The notes beneath the pieces were generated by a model, which saw nothing but the letters and a program-made list of their open reading frames with translations, searched no databases and had not been told where the DNA came from. A stretch of DNA of 52,510 bases, the filler included, from Basidioascus undulatus (Eukaryota): assembly GCA_000826855.1 (NCBI GenBank). It is 4 parts of 4 records of this genome, joined end to end, with 100 filler letters (N's around TTAATTAATTAA, not from the genome) between each part and the next. Parts side by side here need not be neighbours in the genome. Positions count along the whole stretch, not along the records: positions 1 to 13,076 come from JTLS01000846.1; 3 more parts are not named here. One strand, written 5' to 3'. The number at the start of each line of letters is the position of its first letter. Position 1 is the first letter of the stretch. A program made the position numbers and the translations under genes. Shown here in pieces: positions 1 to 26,339 of the stretch.

Positions 1-53
1 CAAAGGGAAGGGGCTGGGCCTGGGGCTCATCGGACCGGGGAGTGCCTGAGGGA

Positions 54-1583
54 CTAACCAAGCCATACCGAGCCATCGAGGCCTCCGATACCCTGGTCCA
101 CGTTACTGATGTCCGAGTACCGGGACCAACGGAGAGACGAAACGGCGCCCATAAGGATGAAGAAAAGAAGGGGATATTCCGTCTCATCCCGCGTCGTCTC
201 TAGAGGGGCAGTATACACCGACCTTTGACCACCCTCTACGTGGGGCCCCGCTCCCCGGCACCACCACCAGTACCAGGCATCTATAGAGCTGGCGTCGATG
301 GTAGACACCCAGGGCGCGATGTTCCTCGCCAAAGAGCCCACGAGGCCTCGGCGGGCAGCGCACAGACTGGTGAGTTCGGAGAGGTACGGGCTGGGGGTTG
401 GGGCCTCCGGGCTACCGGGCACCCTCACCCCCCATGCATGGGTACGGGTAAACCCCATCAGTGCCTCGACAGCCTCTGTAGTAAGCTGGGCGTGCCCCAG
501 GTCCGAGCAACAGCGCGCCACCAGGTAGGCGTTCACTACCCTCGAGTGGGGGTCAAGGGTACCCAAGAACTCCATCACCCTCTTCGCATTGCCCTCGGCG
601 AGCACCCCATAGAGGCCCAGGTAGGTGTCGTACAGCTCTCGGCCCCCCGCGGCCGGGGCCTGGGGCCTATCTCCCGGAACTATGCGCTGGCCCAGCACCA
701 AGGTAATGTCCTTCTCGAAGGAGGCAACTGCATCGCCTCGCGCCGCGAACAGAACTGCCCTCGGGACCACCCCGGGGCTGCCTATGTACTCGAACTTGCG
801 GGCCATCTGTGCAACAAAGACCTGAGGGTACTCCCGGCACCAGGCAGGCAGCTGGGACACGGTATGGTACACGTGTGAGGTAAACGCCCGGCAGCCGTCG
901 AGCGGCGCCCCGCTCCCTTCGCTCGCTGCACGTCGGTAGAGCCTCTGTGCCGAGGGCCCCATAGGTCTGTACCTTGCCACGGTCCCTATTGCGCCGTGCT
1001 GAGTCGACTCTATGCTGGACTCACCCGTCAGCAAGAACCTGCCCCGCACGGGATCAAAGTCCACGAAGTCCATACCGTCGTGGACGGCAGCGATCACCAG
1101 TGCCCGTACGGAAATCCGCGCGAGCACGGTCGGTAGTTCGGACGGAAAGGTATCCATGGACGCGGAGGACCAGTCTAGAGTCAGGTAGGAGTCTGCGCCC
1201 GTAGCTGCTGCGGACTGCGCAAGGGTGTACCAGGGCGCCACCTTACGCGACACTTTGGCGTCCCCCCGTAGCCTCCCGGTCAGGCCAGAGCCGTCGGGAG
1301 ACTGTCCGGTGGTGGCTATCTGTGGGACGTCGTACTTGATCTCGAAGCGGAACCCCAGCCTCAGCCTCCTCCACCCCGACCTCCTTGCCTTACGGCGGAA
1401 GCCTAGCATACCAGTGTCGACCCCGTCGAACTGCAAGCTACAATATACGCTTTCGTCACACTTTCTCAGGTCGGCCGAGGAGGAGAAGAGGCTCTGGGCT
1501 AGCTGCGCCACGGCTATGATGAAAGCGACGCCGGCCAGGACCGCAGCCGCTACGGTACCCGCCGTGGATGGATCCATTCCCAT
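54..1583 (-). CDS. Modin/MOD-A-like protein with N-terminal transmembrane helix (~509 aa)
   Basis: N-terminus AVLAGVAFIIAVAQLAQSLFSSSADLRKC..SV, then FRFEIKYDVPQI and SMDTFPSELPTVLARISV...GMDFVDFDP...GTVARY, match my recollection of the fungal modin family pattern (LQQY.A...R.C..SV / FRFE....P / SWD.MP.....P.A). Start set at the first ATG (1583; alternative 1577). Confidence 0.65.
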   Translation of the reverse strand: MGMDPSTAGTVAAAVLAGVAFIIAVAQLAQSLFSSSADLRKCDESVYCSLQFDGVDTGMLGFRRKARRSGWRRLRLGFRFEIKYDVPQIATTGQSPDGSGLTGRLRGDAKVSRKVAPWYTLAQSAAATGADSYLTLDWSSASMDTFPSELPTVLARISVRALVIAAVHDGMDFVDFDPVRGRFLLTGESSIESTQHGAIGTVARYRPMGPSAQRLYRRAASEGSGAPLDGCRAFTSHVYHTVSQLPAWCREYPQVFVAQMARKFEYIGSPGVVPRAVLFAARGDAVASFEKDITLVLGQRIVPGDRPQAPAAGGRELYDTYLGLYGVLAEGNAKRVMEFLGTLDPHSRVVNAYLVARCCSDLGHAQLTTEAVEALMGFTRTHAWGVRVPGSPEAPTPSPYLSELTSLCAARRGLVGSLARNIAPWVSTIDASSIDAWYWWWCRGAGPHVEGGQRSVYTAPLETTRDETEYPLLFFILMGAVSSLRWSRYSDISNVDQGIGGLDGSVWLG

Positions 1584-1600
1584 CTTTGCCGGTGCACTCG

Positions 1601-1614
1601 CAACTCCAGCGTTG
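1601..1614. promoter_or_regulatory. CAAC-N6-GTTG palindrome upstream of the Modin-like gene
   Basis: caactccagcgttg, 17 nt from ATG 1583; the same motif recurs before other genes of the element. Confidence 0.55.
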
Positions 1615-1687
1615 GTGCTCCGGGGGTGCGGCTTCGTTCCGGGGCGGCGCACGGCAAGGCCGGGGCACAAACGGCAGAGCAATTCTC

Positions 1688-1699
1688 CAACTGCGGTTG
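1688..1699. promoter_or_regulatory. CAAC-N4-GTTG palindrome upstream of the kinase gene
   Basis: caactgcggttg followed by ctggcac, 20 nt before ATG 1720. Confidence 0.55.
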
Positions 1700-1719
1700 C
1701 TGGCACTACACTGGACGCA

Positions 1720-2574
1720 ATGGATGAGTTTAAATACTCGAAAGGCGGCCGGTGGCTCTATACTGACGCAGAGGCGTACCTCTGGCACGGCGGGTGCTAC
1801 GTGAGGTTCGTCTACAAGCCGGGGACCTTGGCTGCCGATGTCCTTGCTTTCAGGAAGGACCTCCCCGAGTACGGCCACAGCCTCCTGATAGACGGGAATG
1901 ATGTCACACGCATAGACTACGAAGAGCCGCGAGAGCCCGGCAAGCCGGAGGACGACAGCGAGGACGTGTCCGAAGAGATGTTCGGACTTCCAGTCATCAA
2001 GACCGACGGGAAGGTCCACTACCTAAAGCGTTGCATGTACAAGAGCGAGATACAGAGCCTACTTAAGGTAAAGGGAGGTCCATCTGTGATAGAGCTACTG
2101 GGGCGTACGGAGGACATGAGGCTCGTCTTCCCTAAGTACACGACCGACCTCTTTGAGTACGTACTGAAGCACAGGGACACGGACTTCCGGCAGCACGCAA
2201 CATGGCTACTGCAGATAATCTCGGGTCTCGAGTGGCTCCACTCACGTGGGGTGGTCCACAGGGACCTTGTGCTCAGGAACATAATGTACTCGGAACCTGT
2301 GGTGATAGCCGACCTCGAGTCTAAGCACACCTCGCTTGCCTGCAGGCCACCTGAGGTCTCCGCGGGCGCCGAGTTCAGCCCGGCTAGCGATGTCTACGCG
2401 CTGGGCTTCTGCGCATGGCAGATGGAGAGACGCAACTATCCGAGGCCGTTCGCGCCGGTGGAACTGGAGGGCCCACTCGCAGAGATCTTCTGTGCCTGCA
2501 GACGAGAGAAGCCTGAGGACAGGCCGACCCTCGAAGAGCTCACCGCCGCTCTTGAGCCGATGAGAAGCCCGTGA
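1720..2574 (+). CDS. Eukaryotic-type protein kinase (284 aa)
   Basis: HYLK (beta3 Lys), EIQSL (helix C), HRDLVLRN catalytic loop, IADLE (DFG equivalent), PPE, SDVYALG, RPTLEEL. First ATG at 1720. Confidence 0.88.
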   Translation: MDEFKYSKGGRWLYTDAEAYLWHGGCYVRFVYKPGTLAADVLAFRKDLPEYGHSLLIDGNDVTRIDYEEPREPGKPEDDSEDVSEEMFGLPVIKTDGKVHYLKRCMYKSEIQSLLKVKGGPSVIELLGRTEDMRLVFPKYTTDLFEYVLKHRDTDFRQHATWLLQIISGLEWLHSRGVVHRDLVLRNIMYSEPVVIADLESKHTSLACRPPEVSAGAEFSPASDVYALGFCAWQMERRNYPRPFAPVELEGPLAEIFCACRREKPEDRPTLEELTAALEPMRSP

Positions 2575-2633
2575 GAGGCGCGGGGTAGCCCTGGCCGGTA
2601 TGGCGCGCTGGACGGCGTTGCTGGAGGATGCCC

Positions 2634-2646
2634 AGTTTTGAAAACT
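2634..2646. terminator. Candidate bidirectional terminator AGTTTTGAAAACT
   Basis: Palindrome between the convergent kinase and candidate-SSB genes; the same TTTTGAAAA core lies at the RNAP/PolB junction. Confidence 0.3.
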
Positions 2647-2778
2647 ACGCTACAACACATGACTTAGGATTCATCCGTCTCATCCTGGACTCGATCAACT
2701 TCCTACGCGTTCTCTCGGATCTCCCAGACAGCGTGGCAGAGCTCTCCAGTGTAATCAGCGAGCTCTCGGAACGGGTGA

Positions 2779-3630
2779 TCAGTTTCCCCGGCCGGCAGCG
2801 GGGGCTTCATCCTCAAGCTCGGGCTCGTCCTCAAGCTCAGGCTCCTGGTGACCGGAGTCGGTGATACCTGCGAATGCGAGGACCTCGGCACTGGCAACGA
2901 GACGGCGACTGGCACCAGCGCTCGACGCACCCTGGTTGGGGGCATCGGGACCCTTCACATCCGAAGTACCCGTGAGAAGCGCGGAGTTGAGGGTGAAGCT
3001 GAAAGTCCAGTCTCCCTCGTTAGTGCCAGAGACAGGCTCACCAGTGCACTTCACCCGGATCTCACTGAGAATGGCACAGACCAAGCTCTTCCCGTCCGCA
3101 TTAACAAGCACGTCGCGGAGCTTAATGTTGTACACGTCACCCTGGGAGTTGATAGTGCTCCACGTGCACTCGGTAGGGATCGCACCCTGACGGGCGGCGG
3201 GACGCTTGAGAGTGATGTTGACCCACGCGTACCCCTCCTTCTGCTGGACCCTAGGGTGAGTGAGGTTCACGCCACGGGCCTTCACCTTCTCGGTAAGGGC
3301 GTTCCAAGTCTTGAGAGGGAAGCCGGCGGTGAAGTAAGTGTCACCGTACGTAGCGTTGAGACGCTCACGGTTCTGCACGACGATGTCCGTGAAGAGAGAG
3401 CGGGGGAGTACGACATTGCCAGGGCACACTTGGTCAACCTTCGCGACGTGGGTGTGGAGAGGCGCCTTCGAACGCGCGATCTCCAGGTTACCCACGGCAC
3501 CGTCCAGCCTCCTCATCTCACCGACGTGGTAGTTGAACTGACGGGCCCTGTCAGGAGTGATGAACGCAGGCTCCTGAACCTCAAGCTCACCACTCTCGTT
3601 ACGGCGCTGGTACTGGACTTCGGCAGACAT
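2779..3630 (-). CDS. Hypothetical 283-aa protein; candidate single-stranded DNA-binding protein
   Basis: Clean ATG ORF with strong codon bias (antisense frame also open), a beta-rich-looking core and an acidic tail (EPELEDEPELEDE), next to the helicase. SSB function is inference only. Confidence 0.7.
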   Translation of the reverse strand: MSAEVQYQRRNESGELEVQEPAFITPDRARQFNYHVGEMRRLDGAVGNLEIARSKAPLHTHVAKVDQVCPGNVVLPRSLFTDIVVQNRERLNATYGDTYFTAGFPLKTWNALTEKVKARGVNLTHPRVQQKEGYAWVNITLKRPAARQGAIPTECTWSTINSQGDVYNIKLRDVLVNADGKSLVCAILSEIRVKCTGEPVSGTNEGDWTFSFTLNSALLTGTSDVKGPDAPNQGASSAGASRRLVASAEVLAFAGITDSGHQEPELEDEPELEDEAPAAGRGN

Positions 3631-3664
3631 GATAAGTTATTGCTATACTTCAGAGTGAGTATCG

Positions 3665-3678
3665 CAACGGTCACGTTG
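3665..3678. promoter_or_regulatory. CAAC-N6-GTTG palindrome upstream of the candidate SSB gene
   Basis: caacggtcacgttg in the 65-nt intergenic gap, 34 nt from ATG 3630. Confidence 0.55.
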
Positions 3679-3695
3679 GGCTCACGTCCTGAGTT

Positions 3696-5096
3696 TTAGA
3701 AGGATCCGGGGGAAGGGCGATTGGGGCGCAAATACTTTATGAAGCGGAATCCGGTATTACCCATAGCCTCTACGGTAGTCGGGGACATTAAGGAAGCGAG
3801 GTGCCCTAGCCTGTCGAGGGGCATGCGCGTGAGGGAGGAGACGATTACGCTGGCTTCGATCCAGTCTTCGGGTGACGACTCGTAGTCTACCACGACGTGT
3901 TCCATGATGAACGACCACTCGGCACCGAATATGGTCATGATCACGCTGACAGGCGCTATTACGGCACTGGGTGACCTCAGGCGCACGTATACGCAGAGGT
4001 AGATGAAGTCTAGCCAGTGTTCAGGACGATCGGGCATGATGATACGGGGGAGTGCAGTAGCATTGACGTTCATGTGCACGACTATGGCACGCCGTATGAT
4101 GGCCTCCGAGGACCACTCCTCTACGGTTCTGCTGGAGGGTAATGAGTTGCTACCCATGACTACGGTACTGCTGATCGTAGCTGACGACGGGGGGATAGGT
4201 ACTGAGTCCCTACCCGTGACTGCCTTGATGAGGCCGAGGTTGACGTTGCTGCCAAGCTCTACGTCTCCGGACACCGCTAGTCTTGTGGAGGCCAGCGACT
4301 GGGCTACGTCGACACCCAGAGTCTTGGATGCCCTGGTAAACGCATCTGATGGAAGTGTACACGAGCAGCCTGCGAGGGCAGTCTGTAGGCATCTGATGAG
4401 AGTACTCTTGCCTGTGCCACCAGGGCCGTAGAGGATGATCATCCTTGCTTGGGATGCCGGGTCCAGTAGGCAGTTGCCCACGGACCAGAGGATGGTATCG
4501 AGTTGCGTCCTGTCAGGGAAGAGACGACTCAGGAAGTGGAGTACTACACTCGGGCTCTCCTTGATACTCCATCTCGGAAGGACGCTGGATATCCTAATGG
4601 GCATGATGGAAACCGACTCTACGCGCGCTTTGCCAGCGACCGATATTACAGTGGGCACGTTAATGAGGGGAGGGCATTGACTCGCTATCAGGCCATCCTC
4701 GCCGTCGAGTGCGACGCGCAGCCTCGTGTTGGATACGCAGATGCTCGGGGGTATTACCTCCACGGGGATTGCGAAGCTCTCGATGAGAGAGGAGTAGGGA
4801 CGCATGGCCGTAAGGTAATTGACTGTGGCACTGTCGGCCTCTACCACGGAGCATACGGTGACCTGTGCCTCCGGGGCACAGAGGGGAGCCCAGTGGTTGT
4901 GGCTCGGAAGATAAATTACTACTGTGCCTTGCACCTTGGCGACCATGCCCCTGCCCTTGTAGATTGATGTTATTCTCCCGAACTTCTCGGGTGCCCCGTA
5001 GGTACCCTCCACAGGGACCAGGTGGGACTCGTCCTCTATCGGGGTATGGGGCTGCTCATGTTGACTCGCCAGCGCAGCTTCGGCGAACGATCGCAT
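3696..5096 (-). CDS. Superfamily 3 (D5/P4-like) helicase with an uncharacterised N-terminal domain (~466 aa)
   Basis: Walker A IILYGPGGTGKST, degenerate Walker B LAVSGDVE, IKAVTGRD, motif C VMGSN, arginine finger AIIRR. ATG 5096 chosen because 5141 is GTG and ATG 5126 lies inside the promoter palindrome. Confidence 0.82.
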   Translation of the reverse strand: MRSFAEAALASQHEQPHTPIEDESHLVPVEGTYGAPEKFGRITSIYKGRGMVAKVQGTVVIYLPSHNHWAPLCAPEAQVTVCSVVEADSATVNYLTAMRPYSSLIESFAIPVEVIPPSICVSNTRLRVALDGEDGLIASQCPPLINVPTVISVAGKARVESVSIMPIRISSVLPRWSIKESPSVVLHFLSRLFPDRTQLDTILWSVGNCLLDPASQARMIILYGPGGTGKSTLIRCLQTALAGCSCTLPSDAFTRASKTLGVDVAQSLASTRLAVSGDVELGSNVNLGLIKAVTGRDSVPIPPSSATISSTVVMGSNSLPSSRTVEEWSSEAIIRRAIVVHMNVNATALPRIIMPDRPEHWLDFIYLCVYVRLRSPSAVIAPVSVIMTIFGAEWSFIMEHVVVDYESSPEDWIEASVIVSSLTRMPLDRLGHLASLMSPTTVEAMGNTGFRFIKYLRPNRPSPGSF

Positions 5097-5116
5097 GGCG
5101 CAAGGTAGTGGCACCG

Positions 5117-5130
5117 CAACGCGCATGTTG
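5117..5130. promoter_or_regulatory. CAAC-N6-GTTG palindrome, shared bidirectional site for the helicase and RNAP genes
   Basis: gtgg-caccg-CAACgcgcatGTTG-ccggtcg-ccac, centred between divergent ATGs 5096 and 5149 (20 and 18 nt away). Confidence 0.6.
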
Positions 5131-5148
5131 CCGGTCGCCACATCAACG

Positions 5149-6975
5149 ATGAGCCACGAGCCGCGACCCGTAGAGCTGACCAGGCTAGCTTACGATGGAG
5201 CACTTGCCATTGAGTGTTTCTCCGTGAAACGCTACAGACTCACAAAGGTGGACATGAGGAAGGTTGCTACAGTGAGAGTGTCGACACCCCAGGAGTACAT
5301 GGCGGGCTGCCCCATCCACGACAGGTGCGCAGGCCACTTTGCAAGGACTCCTACTGGGACTCTACTCATGCCCCACAGGTTCCCCGCCCTCGCAGGTAAT
5401 GCAGAGAACCGCTATGCCAGGCTTGCCTCTGACCTGATGGAAAAGAGGGGAGGAAGTGAAGCCTACAATCAGGGACTGCTGGGTATCATGATGACTAAGG
5501 GAGGGACCTTCAGATACAGTGTGCTCTCGGGGTCTGTAGATGGCAGTGCGCGGCTGGTAATAGCTCCATGTTGGGGACTCCTAAGGAACCAAGTGGCCCT
5601 CCCTCGCAGGGTGGCTGAGAACATGAAGTATCTGAAGCACACCGGGACGTCGGCCTCCCCTGACCACCCCGAGGGCTCGTACGAGGCTGTCAGTGTCCAG
5701 GAGGGAGACTACGCGATAGTGGTAAGGCCTCCATCCCTTACGTTCTCCAATGCACAGCCGATGGAGGTAGTGCTGTGGGACAACGAGTGCATGGGACTCT
5801 CGCCCCTCAACTGCAGTGAGTACCACGCGGACTTTGACGGCGACGAAATGCACGTGTATCCAATATCTTCGCCCCTCGCAGTCGAAGAGGCGCGTCAGTG
5901 GGTCCAGTTCGTCAGGCAGGAGAGAGATGATCCCTTCGCTAACGTCTACGCCTTACCCGCCGCTCGAGCGGCGGCCTCTACTTCGTTCGTGCCTGCGGAG
6001 GGGTGGCAGTCAGCGAGGGGAGAGCAGTTGCCTGCGTTTATGCCTAGTACCACGACAGACATGGCGGAAATGATGACAGGTGCGCCCCTACCGGACGGAT
6101 ACGCGGGTGCCCGTGTGAAACCATCCACATGTGAGATGTTTGCAGAACTCGCATCTACTGGCGGCCCCAGCATCGAAGACTTCTACGAGGAGTCACTCAG
6201 GGGGTTGGATGACATCATGTCACAACAACTCATGCAGGGCACCATAGGAGACATGTCAAGGCAGGCCAGGCTTGCCGCTTCGTGCGTGATAGGGCCCCGT
6301 GCCGACGGGTCCATAACGATGGCATCCTTCTCGTCGACTAAGAGCATAGGGAGCTCAGGAGTGCTTGAGGACTGTCTGCCGGGGTCACCCGCGATGGTAG
6401 CTGCCAGTGCACTATGCGGGGTAGCCCAGCAAGCCGCGTTGGACTCACACAGGGCACACAAGGAGAAGGCATCCAGGGAAGACCTCATCGCAGGCCTGTT
6501 CAAGGGGAGTGGCAAGTCCCTGCGTATACTTACAGGCTCGGACAGCAACGCGGAGTGGCAGATGCGTGTAGGGGACGTCTGGGTATCGTACGGACCCGTA
6601 CAGCGGCCTCTGACTTCCTCACGGACCCTGGGTGCGGTAGCTCCGAGTGAACTGGCTAGACTACCCCACCGTAGGGCTGCCGCGAGACTTGCCCTGCAGT
6701 ATCTGAGTGCCTACTATGGAGTGTCCCTAAGTGAAGCAGAGCTTTCCTCACTGGCCGCACTGCTTGCGTACGAGCCGTCGAGATCAGACACACCACCCAC
6801 GCACAAGGAAGGTATGGCGGCACGGGACATGAGGTGGTTAGCGACATTAGCAGTAGGGCACTTCAGTCTGATACGTGGCATGGCCAAGGATTCCAGGTCG
6901 GCGCGGTGGACTACCCCAGACACCATCTCGGAGGCTATGACATTTGCCTCCTTCTACCGGCTCCTCGGGTTTTGA
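5149..6975 (+). CDS. Miniature DNA-directed RNA polymerase largest-subunit (Rpb1/beta') homolog (~608 aa)
   Basis: Catalytic YHADFDGDEMHVY; KGGTFRYSVLSGSVDGSARLVIAP (~[22 protein letters not shown]); VVRPPSL (~NRQPTLH); CPIHDRCAGHF (clamp Zn site); bridge-helix-like EDFYEESLRGLDDIM...GDMSRQ; trigger-loop-like PGSPAMVAASALCGVAQQAALDSHR. Confidence 0.9.
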   Translation: MSHEPRPVELTRLAYDGALAIECFSVKRYRLTKVDMRKVATVRVSTPQEYMAGCPIHDRCAGHFARTPTGTLLMPHRFPALAGNAENRYARLASDLMEKRGGSEAYNQGLLGIMMTKGGTFRYSVLSGSVDGSARLVIAPCWGLLRNQVALPRRVAENMKYLKHTGTSASPDHPEGSYEAVSVQEGDYAIVVRPPSLTFSNAQPMEVVLWDNECMGLSPLNCSEYHADFDGDEMHVYPISSPLAVEEARQWVQFVRQERDDPFANVYALPAARAAASTSFVPAEGWQSARGEQLPAFMPSTTTDMAEMMTGAPLPDGYAGARVKPSTCEMFAELASTGGPSIEDFYEESLRGLDDIMSQQLMQGTIGDMSRQARLAASCVIGPRADGSITMASFSSTKSIGSSGVLEDCLPGSPAMVAASALCGVAQQAALDSHRAHKEKASREDLIAGLFKGSGKSLRILTGSDSNAEWQMRVGDVWVSYGPVQRPLTSSRTLGAVAPSELARLPHRRAAARLALQYLSAYYGVSLSEAELSSLAALLAYEPSRSDTPPTHKEGMAARDMRWLATLAVGHFSLIRGMAKDSRSARWTTPDTISEAMTFASFYRLLGF

Positions 6976-6978
6976 AAA
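6970..6978. terminator. Candidate bidirectional terminator TTTTGAAAA at the RNAP/PolB convergent junction
   Basis: Overlaps the RNAP stop (6973-6975) and abuts the PolB stop (6979-6981). Confidence 0.3.
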
Positions 6979-9135
6979 TCACAGCCCATCTGAATAAGAT
7001 AAGATAGTGGCAAGGTTCCCAACACCTGCAGGGACGCAGAAGTGCTTGATCTCAGCCAGCGCTACTTCGAGGACGGCTGTCCTACTGTACGGAACAACCG
7101 CGTCAGGCTCTATGTTGTCCAGGTCCACCGACTGGCGCGTCCCATCCTTGGCAATGTACTGGTAGCACATGGTCCCCTCGATGCGGAGAACCTTCGAGAC
7201 CTGTGAGATGTTCAGCTTACCCCTGCGCGCCACGTGCTCTGCCTCTTCTATAATTGAAGCCACAGCTACTCTCTTGGCCAGGAGGGACTCCTTGCTGAGA
7301 AGTACACTAAGGATGTCGCCCGCTACCTTCCTTGCGTAACCCACCCTGTCCTTGCGGTTGTACGAGATGCCCTTACGAACCTCCTTGCCATCTGAACGAA
7401 TGTACGCGTAATGTTTCTTGCCGAGGAGAAGCATGGATTCAATCGATGCCTCAACTTCCATGGCAGCACTCTTCATCCCTGCGAACTCCATGATACGCTT
7501 AAGAATACGGTTCGCGTCCGCTGCGTGAGCCATTGCCGAGCCTGCGTACCTCCTGTCCGTCACACTCGTTCTCTTTAGGAAGCATGAGTCAGTATCTCCA
7601 TATACGACCTCCAGACCGCACATGGAGAAGACGTACGCTGCGAGGGCGAGACTCCACCTTCCTGCTAGAGTAACGCATGAGGCCGCGTGAGGGCTGTAGA
7701 TGGGAGCATAGCGGAACCCGAGGGCCCCGTACATGCTGTTGGACAAGACCTTGATGGCGTTCGAATACGGGGGATTGCTGCGATGCTGGGCACGCAGCCT
7801 GGTGAGGTACTCCAGTGCTCTGGACATTACGGGAGACTCCAATCTACTGAGAGACACCACGTTGTCACCGATCGCCACGGTGGTCGCCGAGTCAGTCCAC
7901 GAGAGCCACCCCGTGCCCTGGCCCACCCCGCCTATGGGCGTCACTACTGCCGACTCTGGTGATATGCCCAGGTCGATCATGATGGTGGGGTACATGGACT
8001 TGAAGTCGACAAGTACGAGATCGCTATGCATGCCCCTTACCGGAGGGAGGACGAGACCACCCTCTATCTCCATCTCTATGTCGCATCTAGTCCAGTCCAT
8101 GGCAAGTCCCTGGGCGAAGCAGTAGGATGATATCGCACAGGCAGCCATCGTGCCAGTGACATACCTTGCCACGTCGAGCAGGCAGGAGCATGCGGCCACG
8201 CAGAGACCAACGAGTTCCCGCTCTACCCGTAGGTGATCCCAGATCTGTAGAGCGACGACGCAATCGTTGACGTTGTACTCCAGCATGTCCTCCATGTACC
8301 CCGGGTCTGACGCCTCGAGGGGCATGTGGGTCTTCGGGGCCACGTTACACACCTCCGCCACGGAACTGAGCTTCAGGGAGGGAAAGCGCGACCTGTGTAC
8401 CTTGTCCAAGTAGATGAAGAGATCTACATTGTTCACCCCTATGATGTCAAGGTAGAAGGAGTACACAGGGCCGCCCTTGGATCCGTTGTTAATGGGCACG
8501 AACTGGGACACTCTCAACCGGGGTGCGTGGTAGAGAAGACGTGAGTTGTCGAAGTTGTAACAGTTGTATCCGATGAGCCACGCAGGCATGTGGGTCTCCA
8601 TATCTCTGATGAACTCCTCCACGAGTAAGGTGGAGTCGTACACCCTCCGCGAATGGGGAGCCTTCGTAGGACCGCCCGTATACCACGATGCCTTGTGTCC
8701 ACAGCTGCACACCACTGACATGCAGAGTATCCTTGCGTGAGGAGGGGGCAGTCCACCCTTGTCCCTTGTCGACATTTCGGTCTCGATATCGTACGACGCT
8801 ACACACGTCTTGGGGGCCGGCCTGGGAGGAAACCCCAGACCCGGTTCTGCCGACCCTCCGATGACGATGCCCAGGCATGAAGCTTCCCTCATCGCCCTTA
8901 GTCTCGGAGAGCACTGCCATACCAGAGATGAAGGTCCCGCCTCTCCGTCAGCCTCAAGCCTGGGTATCACAGGAAGGTCCGATACTGAGCCGTCCTTAGA
9001 CACGTCAATCTCCTCCACGACATCGCCTGTATCGCCCGTAAACCTGACACGGAGATTGCCTGCGTCGTCCGAGCCCGTCCAGGAGATGTACGCTCCCTGC
9101 GATAGTTTGTGCCTCACGTGTGCGAGACCGCTCAT
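6979..9135 (-). CDS. Family B DNA polymerase with 3'-5' exonuclease, RNA-primed type (~718 aa)
   Basis: ExoI YDIET, ExoII GYNCYNFD, ExoIII YNVNDC, motif A DFKSMYPTIM, motif B KVLSNSMYG, motif C YGDTDS, KKHY. B-to-C spacing is short, with no evident TPR insert. First ATG at 9135. Confidence 0.95.
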   Translation of the reverse strand: MSGLAHVRHKLSQGAYISWTGSDDAGNLRVRFTGDTGDVVEEIDVSKDGSVSDLPVIPRLEADGEAGPSSLVWQCSPRLRAMREASCLGIVIGGSAEPGLGFPPRPAPKTCVASYDIETEMSTRDKGGLPPPHARILCMSVVCSCGHKASWYTGGPTKAPHSRRVYDSTLLVEEFIRDMETHMPAWLIGYNCYNFDNSRLLYHAPRLRVSQFVPINNGSKGGPVYSFYLDIIGVNNVDLFIYLDKVHRSRFPSLKLSSVAEVCNVAPKTHMPLEASDPGYMEDMLEYNVNDCVVALQIWDHLRVERELVGLCVAACSCLLDVARYVTGTMAACAISSYCFAQGLAMDWTRCDIEMEIEGGLVLPPVRGMHSDLVLVDFKSMYPTIMIDLGISPESAVVTPIGGVGQGTGWLSWTDSATTVAIGDNVVSLSRLESPVMSRALEYLTRLRAQHRSNPPYSNAIKVLSNSMYGALGFRYAPIYSPHAASCVTLAGRWSLALAAYVFSMCGLEVVYGDTDSCFLKRTSVTDRRYAGSAMAHAADANRILKRIMEFAGMKSAAMEVEASIESMLLLGKKHYAYIRSDGKEVRKGISYNRKDRVGYARKVAGDILSVLLSKESLLAKRVAVASIIEEAEHVARRGKLNISQVSKVLRIEGTMCYQYIAKDGTRQSVDLDNIEPDAVVPYSRTAVLEVALAEIKHFCVPAGVGNLATILSYSDGL

Positions 9136-9142
9136 CTGTAGC

Positions 9143-9173
9143 GTGGAAGGACAACTGTCCGTTGGACTGCCAC
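9143..9173. promoter_or_regulatory. Symmetric GTGG-N5-CAAC-N5-GTTG-N5-CCAC bidirectional site between PolB and the first APH-like gene
   Basis: gtgg aagga caac tgtcc gttg gactg ccac in the 63-nt divergent intergenic gap. Confidence 0.6.
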
Positions 9174-9198
9174 TCACCAGCCGCGCCAGCCACTCGCC

Positions 9199-9945
9199 AT
9201 GCCCGATTCGACAGACCGCAGGCCGCGTGAGGAAGGATGCGTCGGTATCACGCACGAGAAGAAGTACTACGAGATAGACGTACACGGCACGAAGACCTTC
9301 GTCAAGCGCTCGTTAAGGCCAGAGGAATGGATGACCAATAGAGCTGGGAGGGTGATCATCCCCGACATCTGTATCCAGCGCTTGCGTAACGAGGCCGCGG
9401 CCATCCAATACATCAAGGAGAACACAGACATTCCGGTGCCTACAGTAAGGTGTGCATTCGAGGACGACAGGGCCTTCTACCTCATCACCGACTTCGTGGA
9501 GGGCGTTCGCCTTTGTGACCTTCCAGAGGAACAGAAGCCTTCTGTCATGGCAGAGGTAGAGAAACACCTGGAAACCCTGCGAAACCTCAAGTCCGGCAAG
9601 ATGGGGGGCCTTGCGGGTGATTGCTGCTTTCCATGGAGGATAGCTCGGCATCTGACGACACCCTTTCCCCCTAAGTACCGCGACAGTGAGGGGGAGGATT
9701 ACGTTTTCTGCCACGGCGATCTCTCGCAGCACAACGTCATAGTGGACCCCGAGACTCTGAAGATAAGGGCGATCGTAGACTGGGAGTATGCGGGCTTCTA
9801 CCCCCGCCAGATGGAGGGCCTCTTCTACAAGCGGGTCGGCCCCTCTGATGCCGTGGCCGACGAAGTGAGCGATGTACCCGAGATCCTGGCGCTACTTACC
9901 GACCTAGAGGTCAGGAGGACTCCGGTAAAGAAACAACAGAGTTGA
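9199..9945 (+). CDS. APH/choline-kinase-like phosphotransferase, fungal type (248 aa)
   Basis: TFVKRS, RLRNEAAAIQYIKENTDIPVP, Brenner motif CHGDLSQHNVIVD, IVDWEYAGFYP. Confidence 0.9.
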   Translation: MPDSTDRRPREEGCVGITHEKKYYEIDVHGTKTFVKRSLRPEEWMTNRAGRVIIPDICIQRLRNEAAAIQYIKENTDIPVPTVRCAFEDDRAFYLITDFVEGVRLCDLPEEQKPSVMAEVEKHLETLRNLKSGKMGGLAGDCCFPWRIARHLTTPFPPKYRDSEGEDYVFCHGDLSQHNVIVDPETLKIRAIVDWEYAGFYPRQMEGLFYKRVGPSDAVADEVSDVPEILALLTDLEVRRTPVKKQQS

Positions 9946-9971
9946 GACGCCATCGTTCTCCTCCTGGCCCA

Positions 9972-10133
9972 ATGTCCGTCCTTGCACGCTTCCTCCACAC
10001 TCTATTCGGCGCGAGGGTCGCGATCCCCAGCGGCCTCGTTCTTCACCCCTCTACCGTGGTGCGCTGCTCCACCTGTGGCGTCACTGTTTCGAGCACTCAG
10101 TCTGTCTGTCACAGCTGTGGCAACGCTCCGTAG
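9972..10133 (+). CDS. Small Zn-ribbon protein (53 aa)
   Basis: MSVLARF...RCSTCGVTVSSTQSVCHSCGNAP contains CxxC-x10-CxxC; preceded by CAAC-aga-GTTG at 9934-9944. Confidence 0.55.
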   Translation: MSVLARFLHTLFGARVAIPSGLVLHPSTVVRCSTCGVTVSSTQSVCHSCGNAP

Positions 10134-10157
10134 GCACGCACCACCCACCCCCACCCC

Positions 10158-10277
10158 GCCCCCTGTAGCACCCTAATCTCCTGTGCCACCACGTAGTCTG
10201 TTTGTTGTTGTTGCTGAGTGTCTGTTGGCATGTTACCCCTGTATTCGCCATACCCTAACCCCGCTACATACCCTCCC
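10158..10277 (+). repeat. Diverged 120-bp non-coding direct repeat, copy 1
   Basis: Begins with the exact 16-mer gccccctgtagcaccc and shares the tgttgttg, catgtt(a/g)ccc and cccta blocks with 12948-13067. Confidence 0.7.
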
Positions 10278-10311
10278 CAAAACCCTGCCGATCACAGGGC
10301 TGCACGCAAGG

Positions 10312-10332
10312 CAACAGGAGTTGAGCGGCCAC
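10312..10332. promoter_or_regulatory. CAAC-N4-GTTG-N5-CCAC upstream of the tandem APH ORF
   Basis: caac agga gttg agcgg ccac; the palindrome ends 25 nt before ATG 10349. Confidence 0.55.
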
Positions 10333-10348
10333 TCAGTAGGCAGCCAAC

Positions 10349-12823
10349 ATGTGTGACACGTGGACTGTGAAAGTTCCCCTTTACGACGACGCGGGCCTGC
10401 CCTTCGACATCACGGGTCTCCTTGTCGACACCGCTGATGGGCCTGTACTCGTCGTAAGGAGGCCTGGACTGACGGGCGCCCCGGGGCCTGCCGATGCGAC
10501 GACACTTAGGAAGCTGACTGAAATCCAGAGTATAGGCAAGCTGGTCCTTAAGGGTAAGCTCAAGCAGGATGTGGATGGGGTGCTGGCTACGTCGAACGAC
10601 CTCATCGCTAAGTTCTCAGGGAGTTGGACGTACGAGGCCTCGCTAGACCACTGGGACTCCGTGGCACTTGCGCTCCGGAGCAAAAGCATGATGCCGCCCG
10701 GGATGCTAGCACCCCCCAGGTGGCTGATCGACAGGTTCTTTCCCTGCCAGGCCGCCAGCTTTGAGGTGCTCCAGGACAACCCCGACACGTGTACCGGCCT
10801 GGTCTCTACAACGCTAGGCAGCAAGTACATCCTCCGTCTTGCCAGAGGTCGGGATAACGTGGAGCGTGCCCTCGCTACCGAGGCCCTGATGAGCCTGGCG
10901 CGTACCAAGGTGCCTGTCCCCAGAACAATAGACAGCTTCTGTTGGGAGGAGGACGGCAAGCCCCTCTGTGCGACAGTCGTTGAGTATGTCTACGGCTCCA
11001 CTCTCGAAGACGAGTGGGAGGAGCTCACCAGGGACGAGAAGCTATCGTACGTTGACCAGATCGTGGAGCTACTCGCCGGCCTCCATACGCTGAAGAGCGA
11101 CAGGCTTGCCCCCAACGACCCAAGGACCACGAGCGCCCTGGGCTTCCGCGAGGGTGACCCGCGCTGCTTCCCGGACACCAGGACGTGGCTGAAGGCCCTT
11201 GTTGAGTCATACTGGGGCAGCGAAGCTCCTCCCGCTGGGATCAGGGAGCAGCTGGAGGCCCTCGGTGCGCCGGAGCACCCCTACGTTCTGTGTCACAACG
11301 ACATGGAGCCTCGTAACATAATGGTGCGTGGTGGTAAGGTGGTGTCCATCATAGACTGGGAGTTCGCCGGCTACCAGCCTTTTATCTACGAGTGGGTGGT
11401 ACCTAGCACGGGGCTGGGCACAAGCTGCATCAACTACGAGTGGCACGTCATGTTCAGGCAGGCCGCTGCGAAACTTCTTCCGCGCGAAGACCCAGTTATG
11501 GAGCGGCTGATCCTTGACATCTTTAACGGGCTCTGGAACACCGTGTGGAAGAGGAGAAAGGTAGCCGGGTTCCGGCTGGCCTTCATGGCTAAGCACGGCG
11601 TCGTCGAGGGTGACCTGTGGAGGCCTCCTACCGCCGCCGGATCTATAACTGAGATGGGCGCTACCCAGACGCAGCCGGCGGAAGGCACCCCGAGACCGTA
11701 CACAGTCGGGAGTACAACAGAGTTGAAAAAGCCACGCTCATCCTCGAGCGCTTCGTTGGCCTTATACCCAATCACCCCTGTAGCGCAGTGGTCAGCAACC
11801 ATGAACGCCTCCGAAGGTAACGCGGAGTACCCCCTGCCGACCAAGATACCCAACGTGGATAAGCTTCCGCCGTTCGGGACTACCGACGAGGAAAGGGCCA
11901 TTAGAATTGCCGAGCTCGACAGGAGGGATGCCTACGACCCTATTGCGTCAGGGGCGATACGGGAGATTTACAAGTGTTCTGAGCGTAAGGTCATTTCCAT
12001 AGACGGTCGCTTCGTACTCAAGACGGCATCCACCGTGAACCCTGCAGAGCAGGGCAGTATAGATATTGTCAGGGCGCGTACCACAGTACCGGTGCCTGAG
12101 ACTATAGAAAGGTGGTACAACCCCGAGGCACGCAAGCACTTTGTGCTTGACCGGCAGATCAAGGGGACGACTATGCTTGAGGCCATGAAGACCATGTCGG
12201 ACGCGGAGGTGGAGGCTGTGATGGAGCAGCTCAGAGGCTATCTCGCGAGCATCAGGTCCATTACCTCGGGGTCTCTGCACGTGGCTGGGAGCACGCTGCT
12301 GCTTGACTACCACCTGTCCCACGACTACCTTGTCTTTACGGGCGACGATCAGTGCCACGCGTTCATAAACCAACTAATGCTCTCGGGGAAGGTCGACCTT
12401 CGGTCTCGCAAGGCAGCCGTGGTTAGAGCGTTGCATGACAAGCACCTGGAAAGGTACCCCGAGGACAGGACCACCTTCGTCATGACCCACGGGGACCTGG
12501 GCCCTTATAATGTCATGGTGGACGGCGGCGCTGTAGCCTGTGTCATTGACTGGGAAACGTCTGGGTTTATGCCGGCCTATTGGGAGAGGATAAAGTCGAT
12601 GACCAGCGGGGACCAATCGCGCGTGTGGAAGGTATCTTTGAGCAAGGGACTCCCTCCCTGCCCTGAGATGGAAGCCGCCACCAAACTAATGCGGGAGCAC
12701 ATCCCTCTCGGCGTGCTCAGCGACGAGGGCCAGCAGTGTTACATCTCTGCGGCTCTCCTCGTTTACGGAGAAGAGACCAACCCGGTCGGGGACGCACCAA
12801 ACGTTCATTGCAATGAAGCTTAG
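10349..12823 (+). CDS. Tandem double APH-like phosphotransferase (824 aa; possibly two genes, the second starting at ATG 11801)
   Basis: Domain 1: TEALMSLARTKVPVP, CHNDMEPRNIMV, IIDWEFAG. Domain 2: VRARTTVPVP, THGDLGPYNVMV, VIDWETSGFMPAYWE. A low-complexity linker separates them. Confidence 0.88.
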   Translation: MCDTWTVKVPLYDDAGLPFDITGLLVDTADGPVLVVRRPGLTGAPGPADATTLRKLTEIQSIGKLVLKGKLKQDVDGVLATSNDLIAKFSGSWTYEASLDHWDSVALALRSKSMMPPGMLAPPRWLIDRFFPCQAASFEVLQDNPDTCTGLVSTTLGSKYILRLARGRDNVERALATEALMSLARTKVPVPRTIDSFCWEEDGKPLCATVVEYVYGSTLEDEWEELTRDEKLSYVDQIVELLAGLHTLKSDRLAPNDPRTTSALGFREGDPRCFPDTRTWLKALVESYWGSEAPPAGIREQLEALGAPEHPYVLCHNDMEPRNIMVRGGKVVSIIDWEFAGYQPFIYEWVVPSTGLGTSCINYEWHVMFRQAAAKLLPREDPVMERLILDIFNGLWNTVWKRRKVAGFRLAFMAKHGVVEGDLWRPPTAAGSITEMGATQTQPAEGTPRPYTVGSTTELKKPRSSSSASLALYPITPVAQWSATMNASEGNAEYPLPTKIPNVDKLPPFGTTDEERAIRIAELDRRDAYDPIASGAIREIYKCSERKVISIDGRFVLKTASTVNPAEQGSIDIVRARTTVPVPETIERWYNPEARKHFVLDRQIKGTTMLEAMKTMSDAEVEAVMEQLRGYLASIRSITSGSLHVAGSTLLLDYHLSHDYLVFTGDDQCHAFINQLMLSGKVDLRSRKAAVVRALHDKHLERYPEDRTTFVMTHGDLGPYNVMVDGGAVACVIDWETSGFMPAYWERIKSMTSGDQSRVWKVSLSKGLPPCPEMEAATKLMREHIPLGVLSDEGQQCYISAALLVYGEETNPVGDAPNVHCNEA

Positions 12824-12924
12824 CGTTACCTCCCTCATCAATGCCTGGAACTGTAAGTGTGGCACCAAACATGACGGGCACCACGGTATGTAGCAACTGT
12901 GGCGGACCTACCGCCGCCGGGTGA
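12813..12924 (+). pseudogene. Frameshifted small Zn-ribbon ORF (putative paralog of 9972-10133)
   Basis: MKLSVTSLINAWNCKCGT in one frame and NMTGTTVCSNCGGPTAAG* in the +1 frame; removing one A near 12867-12869 gives WNCKCGTNMTGTTVCSNCG. Confidence 0.4.
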
Positions 12925-12947
12925 GCAGCGGAGCGTAGCACCCTACG

Positions 12948-13067
12948 GCCCCCTGTAGCACCCCCAGTCTCCCCTGTACCACCATGCACCCCGTAATGTT
13001 GTTGAACGCCTGTATGACCATGTTGCCCAATACCCGTCTGCGCCCTAGCTCTGCTGCACGCCCACCC
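12948..13067 (+). repeat. Diverged 120-bp non-coding direct repeat, copy 2
   Basis: Same 2790-nt offset from copy 1 at both ends; exact gccccctgtagcaccc at 12948-12963. Confidence 0.7.
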
Positions 13068-13076
13068 ATTCAACTA

Positions 13077-13176
13077 NNNNNNNNNNNNNNNNNNNNNNNN
13101 NNNNNNNNNNNNNNNNNNNNTTAATTAATTAANNNNNNNNNNNNNNNNNNNNNNNNNNNNNNNNNNNNNNNNNNNN
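13077..13176. other. Artificial contig linker
   Basis: 100 nt of N with a central TTAATTAATTAA (stops in all six frames). Confidence 0.98.
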
Positions 13177-16697: not shown

Positions 16698-18099
16698 TCA
16701 GTACTTCATCCTAGCCGTCCACATTTCCTTCCCCTCCTCGTCCTTCAAACTCCGACAGAACTTCAGCACCAGCTTCTCCCGCTCCTTGGCATCACCGAGG
16801 TCCGCAAGGAACGGCAGCATCTCGCCCGCGTACCACTTCGCGCGGACAAGGAAAAGCTCGGCGAAGCGCTCGGCGGGAGTCGGGGAGAGCGCGGAGAGCG
16901 GGAAGTACGAGAGCGAAGAGGGCGGCGTCGGTAGGTACTGCCCTGAGAGGAGGGGCAGCGCGACGTGCGGGTGGAATGTGTCGGGGAGCTTGGAGCGCCA
17001 GGACGAGAGGAAGTCGGACTGCTTCACCTCGGTCTGAACCGAATCACAAGCAGGTCAGTCTGGGCCCTGTCTCCGGGAAGAGGAGAAAAGAAGCGCACCT
17101 CGTAGCCCCTCAGAACGCCCAACCCTACCTCCCGTACGACCTCCTCCACGTCCAAGCTCCATCGACCTTGCCGACCCTCCGCTTCCTCACCCACTAACGG
17201 TCGCCCAAACCACCCCAGTGCAATGAGCGCAACTTCGCGCCGAAAGTCGTGCTCGTCGACCAGCGCGTCGAGCACCTCGTCGACCGGAAAGTCGCTGGGC
17301 GAGGATGGGGCGTCGAGGAGAGTGAGGGTGGTAAGGAGGGCGTCGAGGAGGTTGGAAAGGTGGGATTGGGAAAGGGGGCGGAATTCGCCTACAATCGGCG
17401 AGGTTTAGCACAAGAAATCCTGTGAGGATGCTGAGAAAGACGCACCATCCAACGACACGATCCGCCGGCTCTTCAGGCCTTCGTCCAGCTCAGTTTCCGA
17501 CGCCTGCACCACGCTCTCCAGCTGAGCCCGATTGAACCGCCGCCTTTTGAGCTGCCACTCCGCCTCTAAATGAGCCTCGAGCTTGAGTCTTCCCTCCAGC
17601 ATGGCGAAGTACTCACCGGTCTACCACTGTTTATCTGTTCCTCGTCTTCCCCCGAGTACACCGCCTCTCCCAGCAGCGCGTCCAGCCTCTCGAGGCGGGG
17701 AGGTACGGGCATCGCCTCGAAGATCGCGTCGAACTCGTCGCGGATCTCGAGTACGTTGTCATCGTCGTCCGAGGCGGAAAGGAGGATGAGCGAATTGGAG
17801 TGGGAGACTTGGCGGAGCGCGTAGGTCGCGCTCGGCGTGCACAGGACGGCGTCGTCCGAGGGTCGGCCCTTGATGGTGAGACTATCATGAAAGGTCAAAA
17901 TGAACGCATTAGCGCTGCCCCGAACGAAAGGCCCGAACGAGAGTGCTCACGTCGCCGACGACGCCGCTCCGCCCTTGGACGCGTCTTCGAGAAGCTTGCA
18001 CAGCTCCTTTGGCAGTTCGAGCAGCTTGTACGCCTCAGTGCCGGGCGCTGAGGGGAATCGGATCGTGAGCTCCTTTGCTGAAGACGTCGGCGCTGGCAT
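16698..18099 (-). CDS. DCC1: Sister chromatid cohesion protein Dcc1 (Ctf18-RFC subunit), spliced
   Basis: YKLLELPKEL, LTIKGRPSDDAVLCTPSATYALRQVSHSNSLIL, PAERFAELFLVRAKW...PFLADL...LVLKFCR. Confidence 0.88.
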
Positions 18100-18319
18100 G
18101 TTGGAGGGTGCGGGTGGAGAGGAAGGTAGATGAAGGCGGGAGGCAACCGGGAACACGACGCGTCCAAGCGTCCGAACTTTGGAACGCGCTCTCGACGCGT
18201 CAAGCCCTGAAATTGCGGGTCGCGACTGGGTCGACTACCGACCATCACCACCACATCGACTTTCTTACCGCCTTGCAATCGTCCTCTTATCCACAAACAC
18301 GCTCCCTAAGCACATTGTC

Positions 18320-21279: not shown

Positions 21280-21885
21280 ATGATGTTCACTCGTTCTGCT
21301 GCTGCCGCCCTCGCCCTCCTTGCCGGTGTCGCGTCTGCTCTTCCCACCCCTGCCAACGAGACCTCTCAAGTCAAGAAGCGCGACAGCTGGGGGACTGCCA
21401 CCTATTACAACGTGAGCTCTTTGATTTTCGCCCCCCCCCCTCTTGCATGTACGAGCCAGGCTGACGGGTTACCAACGCACCCAGACCGAGACGGGCAACC
21501 AAGGAGCGTGCGGTTCTTGGTTGAACAACAACGCTTGGACTGTTGCCGTGAACTCGGCCCAGTTCCAGGGCAACTGGTAAGCCGATGGCATGTGCAATGC
21601 AGCGTTGCGCAAGGAACGTGTGCTAACTGCGGGTTGGTATAGCTGGCGCGGTATCACTATTCGCAACCCGGACACCAACCAGCAGCAGTGGGCTCAGGTA
21701 AGCTACCGAGTGCAGCATCTTTTCTGCTCCCACCCAGGTTGTTGACGCCATCCCTCTGCCAGGTCGTCGACGAGTGCCCGACGTGCGCATGGGGCGCCAT
21801 CGATCTCACTCCCGGCCTCTTCCAAGCTCTCGTCCCCGGCGGTCTCGGACAGGGGACCCAGAACGTGCAATGGTGGTGGTCTTAA
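21280..21885 (+). CDS. Secreted expansin-like/RlpA double-psi beta-barrel (loosenin/barwin-like) protein, spliced
   Basis: Signal peptide, KR site, GTATYY..GNQGACG, VAVNSAQF, VVDECPTCAWGAIDLTPGLF; three GT-AG introns. Confidence 0.88.
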
Positions 21886-26239: not shown

Positions 26240-26339
26240 NNNNNNNNNNNNNNNNNNNNNNNNNNNNNNNNNNNNNNNNNNNNTTAATTAATTAANNNNN
26301 NNNNNNNNNNNNNNNNNNNNNNNNNNNNNNNNNNNNNNN
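26240..26339. other. Artificial contig linker
   Basis: 100 nt of N with a central TTAATTAATTAA. Confidence 0.98.

Follow-up and report, generated by a model that had tools for sequence, protein, structure and literature searches.

A contig in the Basidioascus undulatus assembly carries replication and transcription genes of an apparently undescribed family of small fungus-associated DNA elements

One short contig in the genome assembly of Basidioascus undulatus (GCA_000826855.1) encodes a family-B DNA polymerase (PolB), a superfamily 3 (SF3) helicase, a candidate single-stranded-DNA-binding protein (SSB) and a half-size subunit of a multisubunit RNA polymerase (RNAP). The whole contig is probably, at odds that we put at roughly 0.6, a piece of a previously undescribed family of small (~22-38 kb), probably linear, fungus-associated double-stranded DNA (dsDNA) elements with their own replication and transcription machinery. 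A sequence-only reading had suggested a fungal DNA virus that is poorly described, or a replicon without a capsid, and this proposal is supported to the extent that tests were possible. The window, that is, the whole stretch of 52,510 nucleotides (52.5 kb) that was analysed, consists of four contigs of ~13.0-13.1 kb each that have been joined artificially, the last reaching the window end, with identical spacers (44 N, TTAATTAATTAA, 44 N) at 13077-13176, 26240-26339 and 39398-39497. Since the first spacer begins at 13077, nothing past 13076 neighbours the genes discussed here, and the relevant unit is one stand-alone contig of 13,076 bp (JTLS01000846.1, positions 1-13076; contig 1 below), whose features are collected in Table 1. 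Only one relative genome was examined, a soil contig of 23.7 kb and 46% GC (L041), of which 21.6 kb of sequence was used.

Table 1. Features of contig 1 and the spacer that ends it (window positions; ORF, open reading frame; aa, amino acids; AF2, AlphaFold2)
Feature	Position	Strand	Support or remark
Pkinase-domain ORF, 449 aa, uninterrupted	1225..2574	+	Pkinase 4.4e-13, PK_Tyr_Ser-Thr 3.5e-13 (Pfam)
Candidate SSB, gp2.5/CP312R-like, 283 aa, acidic C-terminal tail	2779..3630	-	AF2 fold and L041 homologue
P4/D5-type SF3 helicase, 481-aa ORF, first ATG 5126	3696..5141	-	TIGR01613 4.8e-15
Rpb1/A'/beta-prime-like RNAP subunit, 626-aa ORF, half-size	5095..6975	+	RNA_pol_Rpb1_2 8e-13
PolB with proofreading exonuclease, 768-aa ORF	6979..9285	-	Pfam DNA_pol_B 2.4e-29
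APH-like kinase-fold ORF, 248 aa	9199..9945	+	Pfam APH 1.9e-10
824-aa ORF, two APH-like kinase-fold domains	10349..12823	+	Pfam APH 1.1e-40 in 2 stretches
Artificial spacer, N44 + TTAATTAATTAA + N44	13077..13176	none	Ends contig 1

The four-gene core

Contig 1 (58% GC) holds seven long uninterrupted ORFs separated by gaps of 3-204 nt, and its four-gene core lies tightly packed at 2779-9285, with the stops of the convergent Rpb1-like and PolB genes only 3 nt apart. The description of this module as intron-free and tightly packed, made earlier from the letters of the contig, holds for all four genes, each of which is an uninterrupted ORF. The same description had noted the lack of any visible capsid, packaging ATPase or integrase gene and of terminal inverted repeats, and the scans agree: Pfam found no capsid, packaging ATPase or integrase family in 10 contig-1 ORFs (three of them re-scanned at E<=5), and a search of contig 1 for a terminal inverted repeat found none. 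The tRNA and Rfam scans of contig 1 gave 0 and 0 matches, and a tandem-repeat scan gave 1 trivial array.

The polymerase retains the motifs DIETE, YNxxxFD, YNVND, DFKSMYPT, KVLSNSMYG (KxxxNSxYG) and YGDTDS, corresponding to Exo I-III and Pol A-C, and in an alignment of nine family members all of these occupy invariant columns. The family alignment also suggests that translation starts at Met51, at 9135. The gene had been thought to look RNA-primed, and the profile scores likewise place it in the primer-dependent class: PF00136 scores 102.9 bits (cut-off 23), whereas PF03175, which represents the protein-primed type, reaches 16.1 bits (E 0.0053), below its cut-off of 25.8 and over a 32-residue stretch only. 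Chains of the phi29 type are absent among the best 60 of 102 and the best 60 of 135 matches of the polymerase in the PDB. When run against the PDB, the family profile scores 184 bits with Thermococcales PolB, 150 with Sulfolobus PolB1, 145 with E. coli Pol II, 139 with Pol alpha, 128 with Pol delta and 127 with the herpesvirus polymerase. Judged from its sequence, the polymerase is a compact one of the primer-dependent class and is not obviously like Pol delta or the polymerases of nucleocytoplasmic large DNA viruses (NCLDVs). No primase domain was recognised in the ORFs of contig 1 or L041 with Pfam and PHROGs.

The presence of an SF3 helicase had also been claimed, and its assignment to the P4/D5 type is indicated by TIGR01613 (the C-terminal domain of P4-family primases), which matches residues 202-360 with 55.2 bits, below the curated 108.7, and by matches to phrog_1156 (5.4e-14) and to DUF5906 in Pfam (7.9e-4). 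The Walker A motif, GPGGTGKST, stands at invariant columns, and the protein is 28% identical to a 463-aa ORF of L041 (E 1e-33 to 1e-36). The D5-like helicases of IMG/VR match only the ATPase core (residues ~200-356), and in the PDB the helicase profile finds nothing but P-loops. Conservation with L041 extends to the first 200 residues, which have no family match in Pfam, PHROGs or NCBIfam.

The Rpb1-like ORF, for which there are alternative ATGs at 5125 and 5149, matches RNA_pol_Rpb1_2 with 49.4 bits (cut-off 25.3). Its metal-binding loop is intact (HADFDGDEM, in which DFDGD is residues 246-250), and in 41 sequences of the family D246, G249 and D250 never vary, while conservation is at least 90% for D248 and for a CxxHxxCxxH cluster formed by C72-H75-C78-H81. 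The small size given for this homologue at first sight (~608 aa) is confirmed, the 626-aa ORF having 39 relatives of 508-669 aa, and the half size is family-wide. NCBIfam gives 2.7e-10 for archaeal A' versus 6.5e-7 for bacterial beta-prime. The AF2 model (predicted local distance difference test, pLDDT, 76.3) has fold matches to RNAP large subunits with probability 1.00; eukaryotic, archaeal and bacterial subunits in the PDB all match at ~1e-9, and in a viral fold library the RPB1 subunits of NCLDVs and poxviruses are best (2.0e-10 to ~1e-8), followed by nudivirus LEF-9 (1.6e-5) and phage beta-prime-like proteins (~1e-4). As far as comparison of sequences and predicted folds goes, the protein corresponds to beta-prime/Rpb1 and forms the catalytic half of a two-subunit, miniature RNAP of the archaeo-eukaryotic type. 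Comparison with the genes of L041 found no Rpb2-like partner in contig 1.

The LEF-9 and LEF-8 subunits of baculoviruses and nudiviruses are comparably small, and LEF-9 is likewise a small beta-prime-like protein that keeps the metal-binding loop. However, there is no Pfam match to these proteins, the fold match is far below that to NCLDV RPB1 (1.6e-5 versus 2e-10), and the hosts and the gene set differ.

The fourth core gene had been put forward as a candidate SSB, and it keeps that standing. Its AF2 model (pLDDT 82.5, predicted template modelling score 0.79, from a 44-sequence alignment) has gp2.5-type SSBs as all of its ten best Foldseek matches in the PDB (E 3.7e-3 to 1.8e-2), with probabilities of 0.23-0.98, or 0.72-0.98 when two T7 gp2.5 chains are left aside. 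In VIA-align the Z values are 8.4, 7.2 and 7.0 over 130-167 residues, the first of these being for CP312R of African swine fever virus (ASFV; 167 residues) and the last for T7 gp2.5, with Enc34 SSB and DUF2815 at 6.1-6.6. The predicted model thus shares with T7 gp2.5 and CP312R the topology of the gp2.5-type oligonucleotide-binding (OB) fold, together with an acidic C-terminal tail, but identity to that family is only 5-13% and there is no Pfam or PHROG match. The Z values are middling; the predicted fold is supported, and from it we infer a DNA-binding function. The protein is homologous to a 316-aa ORF of L041 (E 1e-6). The gene is the minus-strand ORF rather than an overlapping plus-strand ORF, because 23 of the 24 listed differences from a diverged copy, found in the public sequencing run X3, sit at third codon positions of the minus frame. 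Within it, an 18-nt tandem repeat of 1.9 copies at 2810-2844 encodes the EPELEDE units of the acidic tail.

Relatives and known systems

Relatives of the core genes are rare but exist, apparently as DNA elements of ~22-38 kb that are found with fungi. Those of the polymerase form 8 clusters at 31-37% identity (E 1.8e-150 to 4.3e-82; 704-730 aa), the next match being at E 1.7e-22, and all come from assemblies in Logan or the European Nucleotide Archive (ENA), where their contigs measure 2.3-31.8 kb. For the Rpb1-like protein there are 39 clusters of relatives at 26-36% identity. Four are in named fungal assemblies: Linnemannia elongata, Hirsutella minnesotensis (on a contig of 25,765 bp), Ophidiomyces ophidiicola (23,750 bp) and Puccinia sorghi. 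The longest contigs of the 39 range over 2.6-38.4 kb, with 16 of them within 22.3-38.4 kb and none longer. Out of 1.84 billion representatives, a profile of the SSB retrieves 75 at E<=1e-3, and gene-call fusions show that the order helicase-SSB has been kept, and likewise that of the SSB and the homologue of a 660-aa ORF of L041. A tree of the Rpb1-like family, made by a quick search with no outgroup, places the window protein near the Linnemannia sequence and L041 deepest.

Searches elsewhere added little to this family. A metagenome scan gave one member, L041, whose other ORFs have no match among 119 other loci. In IMG/VR, including its giant-virus metagenome-assembled genomes (MAGs), profiles of PolB, the Rpb1-like protein and the helicase found only distant generic homologues and no family member. 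A scan of prokaryote genomes returned archaeal PolBs and one family PolB. The 2,043-bp contig L242 of a Streptomyces fumigatiscleroticus assembly holds a family PolB that is 35% identical over residues 148-768 (E 2e-108), and contamination from a eukaryotic source explains its presence there most simply. Full-text searching, in which subscription journals are thinly covered, found no description of this element family; it is apparently undescribed, and its absence from the literature is provisional. The view that the element fits no standard class and is a poorly described one of fungi is therefore upheld, with relatives in four fungal assemblies and none in IMG/VR or the literature searched.

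L041 is densely packed and carries an SSB homologue, a helicase, a PolB and a 599-aa Rpb1-like ORF, together with an 829-aa Rpb2-like ORF that matches RNA_pol_Rpb2_6 (3.2e-11) and has the motif GDKVATCHGQKQ. For this ORF NCBIfam gives 3.4e-17 for archaeal rpoB versus 1.5e-5 for the bacterial subunit, and with both RNAP subunits the archaeal families (A'/B) score better than the bacterial ones (beta-prime/beta). The ends of L041 are inverted duplications, in which 1971-2377 pairs with 21233-21638, the end of the examined sequence, at 71-83% complementarity; the paralogues at these ends face outward and are 72% identical in protein, and the right arm runs off the examined sequence. No capsid or packaging families were found with Pfam and PHROGs in the 15 L041 ORFs scanned, which lie in 21.6 of its 23.7 kb.

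Two further L041 genes and its upstream sequences gave some side observations. By eye, the 724-aa ORF (2530-4704) has guanylyltransferase-like KVDG, TDGVLAI and YRIKKP motifs followed by a methyltransferase-like VIDVGSG, and the 660-aa ORF (4725-6707) has a degenerate GQxxY...AFAF like that of uracil-DNA glycosylase (UDG) and a long disordered tail. The capping-enzyme and UDG-like identities that these would suggest are hypotheses only. The sequence TTAAA occurs within 45 nt upstream of 6 of 16 L041 genes, against an expectation of 0.027 per gene (P 2.5e-6, binomial), an enrichment that passes correction for 1024 5-mers, and four of the genes have it 19-25 nt ahead of the ATG. As a candidate promoter element, it may serve the polymerase that the element encodes. 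TTAAA was not seen upstream of the window genes.

In gene content the family is reminiscent of NCLDVs such as the Asfarviridae and Poxviridae, in which a family-B polymerase, a D5/P4 SF3 helicase, a gp2.5-like SSB, an archaeo-eukaryotic multisubunit RNAP and kinases all occur. The best structural match of the SSB is ASFV CP312R, the best viral fold matches of the Rpb1-like protein are NCLDV and poxvirus RPB1s, contig 1 has kinase genes, and L041 has its inverted duplicated ends. An ordinary Nucleocytoviricota genome, or a giant endogenous element, that had been split into small contigs would also present such a gene set. Giant viruses have been published from fungi: in the literature searched, the nearest systems are the Mycodnaviridae, which are giant viruses of zoosporic fungi, an endogenous viral region of 1.5 Mb in Rhizophagus, and the zymocin-like elements discussed below. 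The sizes of the relatives nevertheless make a fragment of this kind very unlikely, since among the 39 Rpb1-like and 8 PolB relatives there is no contig above 38.4 kb, an order of magnitude smaller than an NCLDV, and the L041 core is contained within 23.7 kb between inverted duplicated ends. A mis-binned piece of an ordinary giant-virus genome was the outcome that the sequence-only reading had named as fatal to it, and these same sizes speak against that outcome.

The proteins themselves differ from those of NCLDVs in several ways. At 600 aa and 830 aa, the RNAP subunits of the elements have roughly half the usual size, and the Rpb1-like protein is ~600 aa in 41 members versus mostly 830-1430 aa in full-length NCLDV targets. 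A primase domain, the major capsid protein (MCP), the A32 ATPase and VLTF3 were not recognised in the ORF scans of contig 1 and L041. The PolB profile is best against archaeal-type PolB, and it scores higher against this and Pol alpha than against Pol delta. None of the three markers searched in IMG/VR, giant-virus MAGs included, brought up a family member. The small, self-contained element is thus the preferred reading over a giant-virus fragment.

The virus-like elements (VLEs) of yeasts, of the pGKL2 or zymocin-like type, are built on a similar logic, that of a self-contained replicon outside the host transcription system. They too are fungal and apparently capsid-less, and have their own DNA polymerase, SSB, helicase and RNAP. 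VLEs also have a capping enzyme, for which there is only the by-eye reading in L041, and the inverted ends of L041 add to the resemblance. The helicase and RNAP architecture of VLEs differs from that of these elements. Published accounts put VLEs at 9-13 kb. Those of yeasts are reported to be more than 75% A+T (PMC4431711), and zymocin-like VLEs are reported from Zoopagomycota and Mucoromycota (PMC13348850), so that their host range is not confined to yeasts.

A divergent cytoplasmic VLE, related to the pGKL and zymocin-like killer and helper plasmids, is nonetheless an extremely improbable identity for contig 1, because the polymerase is not protein-primed, the sequence is not A+T-rich and the helicase is SF3. 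The VLE polymerase is protein-primed, whereas the PF03175 score of the contig 1 enzyme lies below its cut-off, and the helicase is of the P4/D5 type. GC is 58% in contig 1 and 46% in L041, against the strong A+T bias of VLEs. The elements are also larger, at 22-38 kb, and have separate beta-prime-like and beta-like genes. As for the ends, contig 1 has no terminal inverted repeat and L041 has an imperfect inverted duplication.

Polinton/Maverick elements, Polinton-like viruses and adintoviruses were considered as well. Their protein-primed PolB, rve integrase, double-jelly-roll capsid, FtsK-type ATPase and protease are unmatched in contig 1 and L041, and elements of the Polinton type are excluded because of the polymerase type and the lack of an integrase.

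Element or host DNA

The core is flanked by kinase-fold genes that are likely to be cargo of the same element rather than host DNA, since they have a core-like oligonucleotide signature, are intron-less and are spaced as tightly as the core. The distance between the Met51 start of PolB and the start of the divergent APH-like ORF at 9199 is 63 nt. The 248-aa APH-like ORF is paralogous to the domains of the 824-aa ORF, and its NCBIfam APH matches are all far below the curated cut-offs; the 824-aa ORF also matches TCAD9 in Pfam (7e-7, below cut-off). No homologue of 453-1442 aa was found for the 824-aa ORF, which is uninformative on a host origin of the flanks.

The signature was measured as tetranucleotide usage normalised for base composition and compared by correlation between contigs and segments. 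The host contigs, that is, the other three of the window, resemble one another (r 0.85-0.89), whereas the four-gene core correlates with them at 0.19-0.34 and the kinase/APH flanks at 0.31-0.40. Core and flanks agree with each other at 0.70, and with L041 at 0.50 and 0.56, respectively. Among 198 loci of at least 10 kb the best signature match of contig 1 is L041 (r 0.57; median 0.14, 95th percentile 0.46), by a small margin over the next loci at 0.55 and 0.53. Correlations of codon usage (core-flank 0.83, core-host 0.70, flank-host 0.67) are too noisy to weigh.

More than one copy of this DNA can be found in public sequencing runs (X1, X2 and X3), which are contigs and for which depth is indicative only. 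X1, from which the assembly may have been made, has matches in all 30 bins of contig 1 at a word depth of ~450-930, with 71 pieces of at least 99% identity and 23 of 95-99%. X3 holds only a version of 95-99% identity, in 16 of the 30 bins. This second version (window 1309-10028) differs mostly by transitions. Pieces in X1 have loose ends at 3095, 3290, 4374, 4812, 11650 and 11875, of which 4812 is common to X3, and for one 12,574-nt contig of X3 the match is confined to 7417-7697. At least two versions thus exist, some with different flanking letters, which points to several partly rearranged or truncated copies.

The genes have been under purifying selection since the two versions split, a strong signal, because the listed differences are mostly synonymous. 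These are 40 of a total of 140 differences from the diverged copy; 36 of the 40 lie in genes and 33 of the 36 are synonymous. By gene, there are 22 synonymous differences and 2 others in the SSB, 8 and 1 in the helicase, and 3 in the kinase ORF at 1225-2574, all 3 of them synonymous.

In X2 the breaks between pieces coincide with gene borders, and the depths are 371, 131, 47 and 91. A minor form in X2 skips 226 nt at 9445/9672, with GT..AG ends, at a depth of 19.7 versus 34.6 and 44.2 for two pieces inside the skip, and the skip would frameshift the APH-like ORF at 9199-9945. X2 was only guessed to be DNA; cDNA is suspected from the depth steps and the joint, and no conclusion on expression is drawn.

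Several of these observations count against an element that replicates on its own. The GC (58-60%) and the GC at third codon positions (GC3, 0.65-0.74) of contig 1 equal those of the host, which fits long residence in this host, possibly in a chromosome, and contrast with the 46% GC of L041. The signature gap between contig 1 and the host could partly reflect coding density. Beyond the core four, contig 1 has neither an Rpb2-like gene nor any other gene of L041, and this copy alone therefore cannot make an RNA polymerase. Its gene order is also unlike that of L041, the Rpb1-like gene lying between the helicase and an inverted PolB, and in the family tree the window Rpb1-like protein has a long branch and an atypical composition. 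The second, partly truncated version in X1 and X3, with its different flanks, is as expected of scattered integrated copies, and the GT..AG joint of X2 hints at spliceosomal, hence nuclear, processing. The absence of a capsid is an absence in Pfam and PHROGs scans only, and the capping-enzyme and UDG-like readings of L041 are unsupported in Pfam, PHROGs, NCBIfam and PDB sequence searches.

Several of these points would be accounted for if contig 1 were an endogenous remnant, an integrated partial copy with no replication of its own and with genes that have been domesticated or recently captured by the host. Only 4 of the at least 15 genes of L041 are present, and the X1 word depth is uniform over the contig. 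A remnant is nevertheless unlikely. No host junction is seen in contig 1, and its flanks continue the core in signature, in the lack of introns and in spacing. All catalytic motifs are intact, and the excess of synonymous changes suits an active element as well as it suits domestication. Thus, the reading of contig 1 as a piece of a small element with its own replication and transcription genes is preferred to that of a remnant. This copy may be a free episome, a member of a multipartite set or a recent insertion into a chromosome. A capsid-less, plasmid-like lifestyle for this element is a working guess, made because no capsid gene was recognised.

Proposed workings and wider meaning

In the mechanism that we propose, the SF3 helicase would unwind the DNA, the SSB would coat the single strands and PolB would copy them. 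The Rpb1-like subunit would pair with an Rpb2-like subunit of ~830 aa, as found in L041, and the gene for this partner may lie in another part of the element or on a companion molecule. The resulting two-subunit polymerase would transcribe the closely spaced genes of the element independently of host Pol II. The transcripts may also be capped by the element itself, if the guanylyltransferase and methyltransferase motifs read by eye in the 724-aa ORF of L041 hold.

A bolder proposal, to which we would give somewhat less than an even chance, is that the family constitutes a new high-rank lineage of linear fungal dsDNA replicons of ~22-38 kb, either capsid-less or with a novel capsid, spread across Ascomycota, Basidiomycota and Mortierellomycota. 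It would combine an archaeal-like PolB with a D5-type helicase, a gp2.5-like SSB and the smallest two-subunit RNAP of archaeo-eukaryotic type known. If this is true, such a lineage could be a reduced offshoot, or an early relative, of the replication and transcription module of the Nucleocytoviricota, and would be independent of the yeast VLEs that are based on protein-primed PolB.

To our knowledge, almost no autonomous dsDNA elements are known from fungi beyond the giant viruses of zoosporic fungi and the killer plasmids with protein-primed PolB. The family would add a new kind of genetic parasite or symbiont of fungi, and would inform how the replication and transcription modules of NCLDVs and VLEs arose or shrank. 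Structural and biochemical work would also gain a minimal multisubunit RNA polymerase. Since the family is present in published fungal assemblies, where it forms small stand-alone contigs, it can be studied in culturable hosts.

The rest of the window is of another kind. Its three remaining contigs consist of ordinary nuclear DNA of a eukaryote, with short exons: the gene for Dcc1 is spread over three ORFs and that for Prp18 over two, and RNase HII, glutaredoxin and a FAD-binding enzyme are also present. The window as a whole is a concatenation of size-sorted contigs and not a single locus. The split host genes (Dcc1, RNase HII and Prp18) lie at 16701-17946, 18134-19744 and 51136-52510 of the window, and are those of an intron-rich eukaryote with short introns.

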